Positions 4,927-28,439 of a stretch of 64,000 nucleotides of DNA are shown here, piece after piece (position 1 is the first letter of the stretch; each line of letters opens with the position of its first letter). Location: NCBI RefSeq assembly GCF_044324785.1, contig NZ_CP172127.1; one strand, 5' to 3'. Both the position numbers and the translations under genes were made by a program. Source of the stretch: Escherichia coli (GTDB lineage Bacteria > Pseudomonadota > Gammaproteobacteria > Enterobacterales > Enterobacteriaceae). The notes below the pieces were generated by a model. It was not told the DNA's origin. It ran no database searches and saw only the letters and a program-made list of their open reading frames with translations.

Positions 4927-5208
4927 ATGGAATCCTTATTAGACAGTATGACTATTACGCTCTCTCGACCGTTTATTATTAAGGGCGAGAGCTGCGATAC
5001 AATTACTATTCGCGAACCCAAATTACGCGACCGCATTATGTTCAGTAACGATAAAAGCAGTCTTGAAGAGCGGACAGCGACAATGCTGGCGCGCCTGGCA
5101 AATCTGGAAAGAGAGGATTTATATGCGCTCCCCGCGTGCGATTACGATCAACTGGAGGCCGCGTTTAACGAACTGGTAAAGCACCCGAAAGACCGACATC
5201 AGATATAG
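4927..5208 (+). CDS. Tail assembly chaperone (gpE-like); possible -1 frameshift extension E' to 5288
   Basis: 93-aa ORF between tube and tape measure. The -1 frame is open from 5169 to a TAA at 5286-5288. Confidence 0.55.
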   Translation: MESLLDSMTITLSRPFIIKGESCDTITIREPKLRDRIMFSNDKSSLEERTATMLARLANLEREDLYALPACDYDQLEAAFNELVKHPKDRHQI

Positions 5209-12890: not shown

Positions 12891-13526
12891 TTATACAGAT
12901 AATTTGTTGTGAACCTGCTTGCGTAACCGGTTAAAAAGGGAACGCAACTTCTTATACCGTAAGGCTAAAAGCAGTACAGCCAGCCCAGCGTAGATGAGTG
13001 GCTGCGGTGAAATAATCTTCACTGACCACAGATAATGTACTGGGGCAAGGATCGCGACAAGATAGACGAAGTTATGCAACTGTTGCCAGTTTTTGCCGAG
13101 TTTTCGCTGCATCGCCTGGGTTGAAGTGAACGCTAAAGCAAGCAAAATTATCCAGCTGATAATACCTAACGTTAAATAAGGCCGGGTAATTAACTCCTTG
13201 CCTAATAACGCCAGATTATTCACGCCCAGCTCCAGTAATGCGTAACTGGTTAAATGCAGTGTCGCCCAGGCAAAGCACCATAAGCCTAACAGGCGGCGAG
13301 TGCGTATCAATAACGGCTGTTTTGCGTAGCGTGCCAGAGGTGTGATTAACAAGGTCGCCAGCAAAAATTTCAGTGCAGTGCGACCAGTAAAATGCTGAAT
13401 ATCTTTCACCGGATCGGCACCCAATCCACCGTGATTAATCGCCCAGACCAGCCAGAGAAACGGCAACAATCCGGCAAGATGCAGGCAAACTTTCAGCCAT
13501 GTCACCTGTTTTGCTGTCAGACGCAT
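12891..13526 (-). CDS. msrQ: Methionine sulfoxide reductase heme-binding subunit MsrQ (YedZ)
   Basis: 211-aa polytopic membrane protein directly downstream of msrP; recognised. Confidence 0.9.
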
Positions 13527-14537
<1,011 letters not shown>

Positions 14538-14639: not shown

Positions 14640-15053
14640 TTAACTGCCACGATAGGTTGAATACCCATATTGGCTAAGTAATAAAGGCACATGATAATGC
14701 TCGTTCACTTTATTAATATGAAATTCAACGGGGATCTCAGGGAAGAAACTTTCAAGATTTTGTTTCTTGAAATAGTCCCCGGTTTTAAATACGACACGGT
14801 AATCGCCCGTAGTTGCAGTTTGCTCGGGCCACAGTGCCTTAATTCGTCCATCCTTATCTGTTTTGGCGGTATTAAGTTGTAACCAGCCGTTATCCGCTTT
14901 CTTTTCAAGAGTGACTGTCACGTCGGCAGCGGGTTTTCCTGTTTGCTGGTTCAAAATGTGCACGCTAAGAATGTTTTGTTGTGCAGCATAGACCAAAGAA
15001 GGTAATGAAAATGCAGCCGTTACTACGGAGAGTACTAAATAACGCTTTAACAT
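14640..15053 (-). CDS. hiuH: 5-hydroxyisourate hydrolase (transthyretin-like) HiuH (YedX)
   Basis: 137 aa with signal peptide and C-terminal YRGS, the transthyretin-family signature. Confidence 0.9.
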
Positions 15054-15122
15054 GTTTATATCCTTGTCATGTGAATGAGTTTTGAGGATAGCGAAAAAGC
15101 GTCCAGGGTAACCTTACAGAAG

Positions 15123-15140
15123 CATTACAATTTTGTAATG
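15123..15140. promoter_or_regulatory. Perfect 18-bp palindrome in the hiuH-hprR divergent region; candidate HprR/CusR-type box
   Basis: CATTACAATTTTGTAATG lies between the divergent hiuH and hprR starts. Confidence 0.6.
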
Positions 15141-15185
15141 AACCAGGCTGTTTCTATAACATATGATTTATGGCATATTATTTTC

Positions 15186-15857
15186 ATGAAGATTCTACTT
15201 ATTGAAGATAATCAAAGGACCCAGGAATGGGTAACGCAGGGGCTTTCCGAAGCGGGTTATGTCATTGATGCCGTTACTGATGGCAGAGATGGGCTTTATC
15301 TTGCGCTGAAGGATGATTATGCATTGATCATTCTGGATATTATGCTTCCGGGTATGGATGGCTGGCAGATCTTACAAACGTTAAGAACGGCAAAGCAAAC
15401 TCCTGTTATTTGCCTTACTGCAAGAGATTCTGTCGATGACAGAGTCAGAGGGCTGGACAGTGGGGCAAATGATTATCTGGTAAAACCTTTTTCATTTTCT
15501 GAGTTGCTGGCAAGGGTTCGGGCACAATTAAGGCAACATCACGCTTTGAATTCAACATTAGAAATCAGCGGCTTAAGAATGGACTCTGTTAGTCAAAGTG
15601 TGAGCAGGGACAATATCAGTATTACACTGACGCGCAAGGAGTTTCAGTTACTTTGGCTACTGGCCTCCAGAGCTGGCGAAATTATACCCAGAACGGTTAT
15701 TGCGAGTGAAATTTGGGGAATCAACTTTGATAGTGATACCAATACGGTGGATGTCGCCATTCGCAGGCTCCGCGCAAAAGTTGATGATCCTTTTCCTGAA
15801 AAGCTAATCGCCACAATCCGGGGGATGGGCTATTCATTCGTAGCGGTAAAAAAATAA
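15186..15857 (+). CDS. hprR: Two-component response regulator HprR (YedW)
   Basis: OmpR-family receiver plus winged-helix domains (MKILLIEDNQRT...); start chosen at MKILLIEDN. Confidence 0.9.
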   Translation: MKILLIEDNQRTQEWVTQGLSEAGYVIDAVTDGRDGLYLALKDDYALIILDIMLPGMDGWQILQTLRTAKQTPVICLTARDSVDDRVRGLDSGANDYLVKPFSFSELLARVRAQLRQHHALNSTLEISGLRMDSVSQSVSRDNISITLTRKEFQLLWLLASRAGEIIPRTVIASEIWGINFDSDTNTVDVAIRRLRAKVDDPFPEKLIATIRGMGYSFVAVKK

Positions 15858-17215
15858 TGAAAAGATTATCTATAACCGTCCGTTTAACCTTGCTTTTTAT
15901 ATTGCTGCTGTCTGTTGCTGGCGCTGGAATTGTCTGGACTCTCTATAATGGCCTGGCAAGTGAGTTGAAATGGCGCGATGATACAACACTCATTAACCGG
16001 ACAGCGCAGATCAAGCAGTTGTTAATTGATGGGGTAAATCCAGATACGTTACCTGTGTACTTTAACCGGATGATGGATGTTAGTCAGGATATCTTGATCA
16101 TTCATGGTGATGGCATCAATAAAATTGTTAACCGGACGAATGTCAGTGATGACATGTTAAATAACATACCTGCTACTGAGACAATCAGCGCAGCTGGCAT
16201 TTACAGAAGCATTATTAATGACACTGAGATAGATGCTTTACGAATTAATATTGATGAAGTTTCGCCATCATTAACGGTTACTGTGGCTAAATTGGCTTCA
16301 GCCAGACATAACATGCTTGAACAGTATAAAATTAATAGCATTATAATTTGCATTGTCGCCATTATACTGTGCTCAGTATTAAGTCCGTTGTTAATCAGAA
16401 CGGGGTTACGAGAGATCAAAAAGTTGAGTGGTGTAACGGAAGCGCTGAATTATAACGATAGCCGAGAGCCTGTTGAGGTTAGCGCATTACCGAGAGAACT
16501 AAAACCTCTTGGGCAGGCGTTGAATAAAATGCACCAAGCCTTAGTCAAAGATTTTGAACGCCTAAGTCAATTTGCTGACGATCTCGCTCATGAACTTAGA
16601 ACGCCAATTAATGCATTACTGGGTCAGAATCAGGTTACGCTCAGTCAAACCAGAAGTATCGCTGAATATCAAAAAACAATTGCCGGAAACATTGAAGAGC
16701 TGGAAAATATTTCGCGGTTAACAGAGAACATACTGTTTCTTGCCAGGGCAGATAAAAACAATGTTTTGGTGAAACTGGATTCGCTTTCTCTCAATAAGGA
16801 AGTCGAAAATTTGTTGGACTATCTTGAATACCTTTCAGACGAGAAAGAGATTTGCTTTAAGGTCGAGTGCAATCAGCAAATCTTTGCGGATAAAATTTTA
16901 CTGCAACGAATGTTATCGAATCTTATTGTTAACGCTATTCGATATTCACCAGAAAAATCGCGCATTCAGATAACCAGTTTTCTTGATGCCAACGGCTCTC
17001 TTAATATTGATATCGCCAGCCCTGGAACGATAATTAATGAGCCTGAAAAACTCTTCCGTAGATTTTGGCGGGGAGATAATTCGCGTCATTCCGTAGGTCA
17101 GGGACTTGGTCTTTCTTTAGTCAAAGCGATTGCCGAATTGCATGGGGGAAGTGCTACGTATCACTATCTCAATAAGCATAACGTGTTCCGAATTACGTTA
17201 CCGCAAAGAAATTAA
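15857..17215 (+). CDS. hprS: Sensor histidine kinase HprS (YedV)
   Basis: 452 aa with two TM segments, HAMP-like region and H-box (AHELRTPIN); start overlaps the hprR stop. Confidence 0.9.
   Translation: MKRLSITVRLTLLFILLLSVAGAGIVWTLYNGLASELKWRDDTTLINRTAQIKQLLIDGVNPDTLPVYFNRMMDVSQDILIIHGDGINKIVNRTNVSDDMLNNIPATETISAAGIYRSIINDTEIDALRINIDEVSPSLTVTVAKLASARHNMLEQYKINSIIICIVAIILCSVLSPLLIRTGLREIKKLSGVTEALNYNDSREPVEVSALPRELKPLGQALNKMHQALVKDFERLSQFADDLAHELRTPINALLGQNQVTLSQTRSIAEYQKTIAGNIEELENISRLTENILFLARADKNNVLVKLDSLSLNKEVENLLDYLEYLSDEKEICFKVECNQQIFADKILLQRMLSNLIVNAIRYSPEKSRIQITSFLDANGSLNIDIASPGTIINEPEKLFRRFWRGDNSRHSVGQGLGLSLVKAIAELHGGSATYHYLNKHNVFRITLPQRN

Positions 17216-25914: not shown

Positions 25915-28439
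<2,525 letters not shown>

Follow-up and report, generated by a model that had tools for sequence, protein, structure and literature searches.

The inverted repeat between hiuH and hprR of Escherichia coli coincides with the published HprR/CusR box and is accompanied by a candidate third half-site

Organization of the hiuH-hprR control region

The analyzed window (the whole 64-kb stretch of DNA) contains two divergently oriented groups of genes, namely, hiuH, msrP, and msrQ on one strand and hprR and hprS on the other (Table 1). The first three genes have been reported as a tricistronic operon. Further neighbours in the RefSeq annotation are zinT and hchA (- strand). The divergent hiuH and hprR genes are separated by a spacer of 132 bp (15054-15185) that contains the inverted repeat under study, as the first-pass annotation had proposed. 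The centre of the repeat (15131.5) is shifted by approximately 12 bp from the spacer midpoint to the hprR side, so that the repeat precedes the ATG codon of hiuH by 70-87 bp and that of hprR by 46-63 bp.

The gene assignments of the first-pass annotation were correct. RefSeq gives the names hiuH, hprR, and hprS, and the NCBIfam equivalog models identified HprR (NF008567, 482 bits, cut-off 353) and hydroxyisourate hydrolase as the hiuH product (297 bits, cut-off 217). In addition, HprR matched the TIGR01387 heavy-metal response regulator subfamily (380 bits, cut-off 279) and is 52% identical to the K-12 CusR protein. As for HprS, it matched only the subfamily model of heavy-metal sensor kinases (318 bits, cut-off 293). 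A coding function of the repeat was considered and rejected. An ORF of 260 aa starting at 15075 covers it, but this ORF is a mechanical extension of hprR; the repeat is regarded as non-coding because both the RefSeq hprR gene and the 223-position HprR model start at 15186. The additional part of this ORF (15075-15185) is an artefact of ORF listing that resembles an old long annotation.

Table 1. Coordinates of genes and regulatory features in the hiuH-hprR region of the window
Feature	Position	Strand	Basis and remarks
msrQ	12891-13526	-	ORF, RefSeq; co-transcribed with hiuH
msrP	13527-14531	-	ORF, RefSeq; co-transcribed with hiuH
hiuH (yedX)	14640-15053	-	ORF, NCBIfam equivalog, RefSeq; first gene of hiuH-msrP-msrQ, regulated target
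Predicted hiuH -10, TATCCT	15085-15090	-	Comparative spacing only
Third half-site, CTGTAAG	15113-15119	-	TGTAA directly repeats the hiuH-proximal arm (starts 11 bp apart); putative function at hiuH
HprR/CusR box	15123-15140	.	Arms CATTACAA / TTGTAATG flanking the central TT
Predicted hprR -10, TATAAC	15155-15160	+	Read from the sequence; conserved in E. albertii
hprR (yedW)	15186-15857	+	223 aa; OmpR/PhoB-family response regulator, heavy-metal (CusR/SilR/CopR) subfamily
hprS (yedV)	15857-17215	+	Cognate sensor kinase; ORF, RefSeq, NCBIfam

The repeat CATTACAATTTTGTAATG was located at 15123-15140 by sequence search; its reverse complement, which is read on the - strand toward hiuH, is CATTACAAAATTGTAATG. 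According to the analysis with a repeat finder, the arms occupy positions 15123-15130 and 15133-15140, have a length of 8 nt each, are 100% complementary, and are separated by 2 nt. The first-pass annotation had described the element as a perfect 18-bp palindrome. This description holds for the two arms; the central TT is not self-complementary, and only 16 of the 18 positions are. Since the reverse complement differs at the two central positions, the 18-mer is not a perfect palindrome, and the element should be described as an 8-2-8 inverted repeat. The word "perfect" is the only error of the earlier interpretation.

The geometry of the repeat is not rare in itself. Two perfect inverted repeats with 8-nt arms and a 2-nt spacer were found in the window, compared with 1.0 ± 1.0 in sequences shuffled in 500-bp blocks, and the statistical rarity of the box as a palindrome is therefore unsupported, this geometry occurring at approximately the chance rate. 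When spacers of 0-4 nt were allowed, the window contained 14 such repeats versus 5.5 ± 2.4 in the shuffles. Apart from the box, perfect repeats of this kind with short spacers are located at 2248-2264, 28345-28362, 61868-61884, and other positions (for example, ATACATTAATAATGTAT and CAGTCATAACTATGACTG), and several GC-rich members resemble terminator stems. A second site with up to 3 mismatches to the 18-mer was not found anywhere in the 64-kb window. The box is marked as non-random instead by where it is located, by being identical to a published operator, and by its conservation.

Identity with the published box and its conservation

A box recognized by YedW/HprR and CusR in the hiuH-hprR spacer is printed as CATTACAAAATTGTAATG, at positions -87 to -70 relative to hiuH, in the available text of two later papers (PMC9302797; bioRxiv 10.1101/2021.09.09.459708), which quote it and credit it to Urano et al. 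2015, 2017. Comparison with the published box sequences showed that the - strand of 15123-15140 is identical to this box; its ends lie 70 and 87 nt from the hiuH ATG (15053, - strand), in agreement with the published position. The interpretation of the repeat as an HprR operator is thus supported, since the published box coincides with it in both sequence and coordinates and the product of the neighbouring regulatory gene is an HprR equivalog. The suggested cross-talk with CusR agrees with published data as well: HprR and CusR use one recognition sequence with differing affinity (PMC8249747), and the copper induction of hiuH-msrPQ is driven by CusR.

The binding itself has been studied in other strains. 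In gSELEX experiments, HprR bound the hprRS/hiuH spacer, for autoregulation and the control of hiuH, although more weakly than the cusRS/cusCFBA region (PMC8249747). In E. coli O157:H7, HprR was detected on the hiuH promoter by ChIP-seq, ChIP-qPCR, and EMSA (PMC13064566). Induction of hiuH-msrPQ by copper via CusSR, and by HOCl and urate hydroperoxide via HprSR, has also been published. Carrying over the binding data from K-12 and O157:H7, we consider it very likely that 15123-15140 is the HprSR (YedVW) operator of the divergent hiuH-msrPQ/hprRS control region. The element is not new and is already characterised as an HprR/CusR box.

The region is highly conserved in E. coli. A fragment of 261 bp around the box is 100% identical to that of strain NY1601 and 98.5% identical to that of K-12, and it matched 5415 of 5426 complete E. 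coli genomes; the locus was present in 5411 of 5426 genomes. The spacer differs from that of K-12 by a single base (A instead of C at 15120), with the box being identical. Over 34 bp centred on the box, 5256 of the 5417 matching E. coli records carry the K-12 sequence unchanged, and 55 records carry the allele present in the window. The C at 15120 is found in approximately 97% of complete E. coli genomes; this position falls in the 5-nt spacer that separates the third half-site and the box. In the E. coli variants examined, the box was intact. In one isolate, SY033, an IS3-family element (L085:1526-2908) is inserted just beyond the hprR-side end of the box, no more than approximately 2 bp from the position equivalent to 15140; the box is still joined to hiuH and lies approximately 1.4 kb away from hprR. 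In addition, seven matches of the box region were detected on plasmid-labelled E. coli records (for example, CP056643.1, H83), and one plasmid-labelled record carries an annotated hprR gene.

To assess conservation in other species, HprR orthologues were searched for using one genome per species, and 15 Enterobacterales loci (L004-L018) encoding proteins with 62-96% identity were compared. A box of the form AT[G/T]AC-N6-GT[C/A]AT is located upstream of the target operon in all 15 genomes, whereas the flanking sequences have diverged; the profile of column information across the orthologous loci peaks over the box. Divergent hiuH and hprR genes were found in nine loci, namely, those of E. albertii, Escherichia sp. 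ESNIH1, Pseudescherichia, Enterobacter, Erwinia, Pantoea, Kosakonia, Phytobacter, and Shimwellia, and the position of the box is kept in all nine despite the divergence of the flanks. The remaining six loci belong to the Morganellaceae (Proteus, two Providencia, Moellerella, and two Morganella); they contain no adjacent hiuH, and msrP is located after hprRS. In these loci, the box ATGACAA-NN-TTGTCAT lies approximately 80 bp upstream of msrP (L013-L018, about 5036-5060). Since the box has moved upstream of msrP where an adjacent hiuH is lacking, it tracks the target operon.

The arms contain ATGAC in most of the loci, as in the K-12 cusC box AAAATGACAATTTTGTCATTTT. The prevalence of the ATGAC form among HprR orthologue loci elsewhere indicates that the ATTAC arms of the hiuH box in E. 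coli and E. albertii are a derived variant. Two Vibrio loci (L019, positions 910 and 2185; L020, positions 1264 and 2111) carry two boxes of the ATGACAAAAATGTCAT type each upstream of an HprR/CusR-like regulator; an obvious third half-site was not seen beside these boxes.

A candidate third half-site and the promoter geometry

An additional element resembling a box arm was noted between the box and hiuH. For its analysis, the box served as the common reference point of 21 target promoters, each read in the direction of its target gene: 10 promoters of hiuH, 6 of msrP, that of K-12 cusC, and those of the plasmid genes silC, silE, pcoE, and pcoA. In 17 of these promoters (hiuH, msrP, cusC, silC, and silE), the motif TG[TA][CA]A occurs at an offset of +11 from the proximal arm, with no more than one occurrence at any other offset outside the box. 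The exceptions are pcoA, which has no such element, and pcoE, the Erwinia hiuH, and the msrP of a Providencia sp., which retain GTCA only. The columns of the third half-site are conserved as strongly as those of the box, and comparison of E. coli and E. albertii sequences revealed no variation in the element. Equivalent elements are found at L003:34323-34329 and in L086 near 19905, 22185, and 2146.

In 18 of the 21 promoters, the third half-site is followed at a distance of 22-23 nt by a -10-like hexamer (mostly TATAAC, TATAAA, or TATAAT). With this fixed spacing, the predicted position of the box centre is near -53.5 in all these promoters (the window, L004-L018, L003, and L086). If the TATCCT of the hiuH promoter is the -10 element, transcription of hiuH would start at approximately 15078, and the box centre and the third half-site would be placed at about -53.5 and from about -41 to -35, respectively. 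On the opposite side, the box arm TTGTAA (15133-15138) ends 16 bp upstream of the predicted hprR -10 hexamer, and the box would therefore occupy the -35 position of a putative hprR promoter, with a predicted start at approximately 15167 and the box centre at about -35.5; autoregulation of hprRS by HprR has been reported (PMC8249747). A promoter scan of the hiuH-hprR spacer found no consensus sigma-70 promoter, as expected for activator-dependent promoters. The third element was also considered as a -35 hexamer, since CTGACA resembles TTGACA; this was rejected because the distance of 22-23 nt to the -10 hexamer is too long for a canonical promoter. Likewise, a fourth half-site placed symmetrically toward hprR was rejected, as no element in a conserved register was found there.

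The recurrence of this layout in most of the 21 promoters suggests that the working operator is longer than 18 bp. It is possible, and we propose it tentatively, that the operator of the CusR family (HprR, CusR, SilR, and probably PcoR) is a conserved module of three half-sites rather than a palindrome of 16-18 bp. Such a module may combine the inverted repeat near -53.5 with a directly repeated half-site located from about -41 to -35, and it may travel with the target operon. The target carrying it is hiuH in Enterobacteriaceae and Erwiniaceae and msrP in Morganellaceae. The proximal half-sites form a direct repeat similar to a Pho box, which would explain the presence of PhoB on cusC and possibly on hiuH. 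The three half-sites and their fixed distance to the -10 hexamer are the only new angle of the present analysis, and a modest one; for cusC, it is partly published as a PhoB site.

Proposed mechanism, rival explanations, and comparison with known systems

The mechanism of the locus can be described from steps published for K-12 and O157:H7, which carry over owing to sequence identity. Oxidants in the periplasm (reactive chlorine species, H2O2, or urate hydroperoxide) would activate HprS, and phosphorylated HprR would bind the two ATTACAA arms as a dimer, activating hiuH-msrPQ and regulating its own operon. Under copper stress, activated CusS would act through the paralogue CusR on the same box, leading to copper induction of hiuH-msrPQ. 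Judging from comparative anatomy, the box would be centred approximately 53.5 bp upstream of the hiuH start. The third half-site would be one helical turn from the proximal arm and just upstream of the expected -35 position, where it may hold a further regulator subunit beside RNA polymerase, and on the hprR side the TTGTAA arm would serve at the -35 position of the putative promoter. In solved DNA complexes of OmpR/PhoB-family regulators, direct repeats are usual, in contrast to the inverted repeat of this box. Since a solved DNA complex of HprR or CusR was not found, only related OmpR-family structures and the PcoR DNA-binding domain being available, we infer the mode in which a dimer would be placed on the inverted repeat.

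Three other explanations of the element were weighed. The 18-bp repeat may be part of an operator with three half-sites that either binds three regulator subunits or is activated by a head-to-tail dimer on the direct repeat; we give this roughly even chances, and it is compatible with the preferred explanation, being an extension of it. It is favoured by the motif at +11 in 17 of the 21 target promoters, with columns conserved like those of the box, and by the spacing of 11 bp, which is usual for direct repeats of OmpR/PhoB-family regulators (the Pho box has a 7-4-7 organization); the direct repeat of cusC also equals a published PhoB ChIP-seq motif. On the other hand, the papers that quote the box give the 18-mer alone, pcoA lacks the element, pcoE, the Erwinia hiuH, and the Providencia sp. 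msrP have it reduced to GTCA, and it is not obvious in the two Vibrio relatives. Alternatively, the third element may belong to the promoter or be used by PhoB.

The role of PhoB at this site is a point that the published record adds to the first-pass annotation, which did not mention it. A ChIP-chip study reported a PhoB peak with the motif TCATTACAAAATTGTAAT, whose position is -79.5 relative to yedX and -53.5 relative to yedW and corresponds to 15124-15141 of the window, and supported it by EMSA and a phoB-dependent yedX reporter (PMC3465305); RegulonDB also lists hiuH under PhoB. The box could therefore be mainly a site of the phosphate starvation response, with HprR and CusR being secondary, but we regard this as very improbable. 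A later ChIP-seq/RNA-seq study lists cusR/cusC and makes no mention of hiuH or yedX (PMC10294691), and the direct repeat on the hiuH side, which agrees with the consensus of the Pho box in only 11 of 18 positions, is approximately 12 bp farther from the -10 hexamer than is canonical. In addition, HprSR or CusSR is needed for the response to HOCl, urate hydroperoxide, and copper, and the box co-occurs with hprR across genera. It is scarcely credible that an AT-rich palindrome has arisen here by chance, or that the element acts as an RNA hairpin or a terminator and has no operator role. The near-chance frequency of such repeats in the window would fit a fortuitous origin, but the exact match to a published operator and the position conserved in 15 other genomes with diverged flanks argue against it. 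The RNA variant was rejected: the fold of 15100-15165 (-10.1 kcal/mol, z = -0.35) is no better than that of shuffled sequences, 69 of 200 of which were at least as stable, and the scan found no terminator-like site over the box. In addition, the 2-nt centre is unable to form a hairpin loop, and the box lies upstream of both predicted start sites. The HprR/CusR operator therefore remains the preferred interpretation.

The box is the switch that couples the sensing of oxidants (HOCl, H2O2, and urate hydroperoxide) and copper to hiuH-msrPQ, an operon for repair and detoxification in the periplasm that contributes to the fitness of E. coli in the inflamed gut and to the survival of EHEC. As both the box and the regulators acting on it have been characterised before, the present finding bears out the annotation without adding new biology. 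The layout of three half-sites with a fixed -10 hexamer could aid the engineering of biosensors based on P_hiuH or P_cusC and the modelling of cross-talk between HprR, CusR, and PhoB.

Among known systems, the K-12 HprR/CusR locus is the closest, having the same 18 nt, distance from hiuH, flanking genes, and regulators; the box shows no difference, and the A present here instead of the common C at 15120 is 3 bp outside it. The CusR box of cusRS/cusCFBA, AAAATGACAAnnTTGTCATTTT (Yamamoto and Ishihama 2005, cited after PMC11195947), has the same 8-2-8 layout and an AT-rich centre, and the K-12 cusR/cusC spacer contains the 8-2-8 inverted repeat ATGACAATTTTGTCAT. The cus promoter also resembles that of hiuH in the divergent regulator and target genes, in a third half-site that lies 11 bp away on the target side, and in the equally spaced -10-like hexamer. 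The arms differ by one symmetric G/T substitution each (ATGACAA in cus, ATTACAA in hiuH), and HprR reportedly binds the cus site more strongly than the hiuH site (PMC8249747).

According to the comparison with the Pho box consensus CTGTCAT-A(AT)A(TA)-CTGT(CA)A(CT), the 7-4-7 direct repeat composed of the hiuH-proximal arm and the third half-site, TTGTAATGCTTCTGTAAG, matches at 11 of 18 positions versus 14 of 18 for cusC. The hiuH repeat ends 22-23 nt before the predicted -10 hexamer, in contrast to approximately 10 nt for a canonical Pho box. In cusC, the proximal arm and the third half-site, TGTCATTTTTCTGTCACC, are exactly the PhoB ChIP-seq peak motif (PMC10294691), and this part of the layout is thus already known.

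More distant counterparts are the Pseudomonas CusR/CopR/CzcR palindrome ATTCATnnATGTAAT and the "copper boxes" of the plasmid sil/pco systems (PMC11195947). These palindromes are likewise located in divergent spacers and are common to several paralogous heavy-metal response regulators, with cross-regulation (PMC11195947), and the pcoA box ATTACACGATTGTAAT has TTACA/TGTAA arms as in the hiuH box. The sil/pco and Pseudomonas systems differ from hiuH in their regulators, signals, and targets, and pcoA carries its box without a third half-site at the fixed offset.
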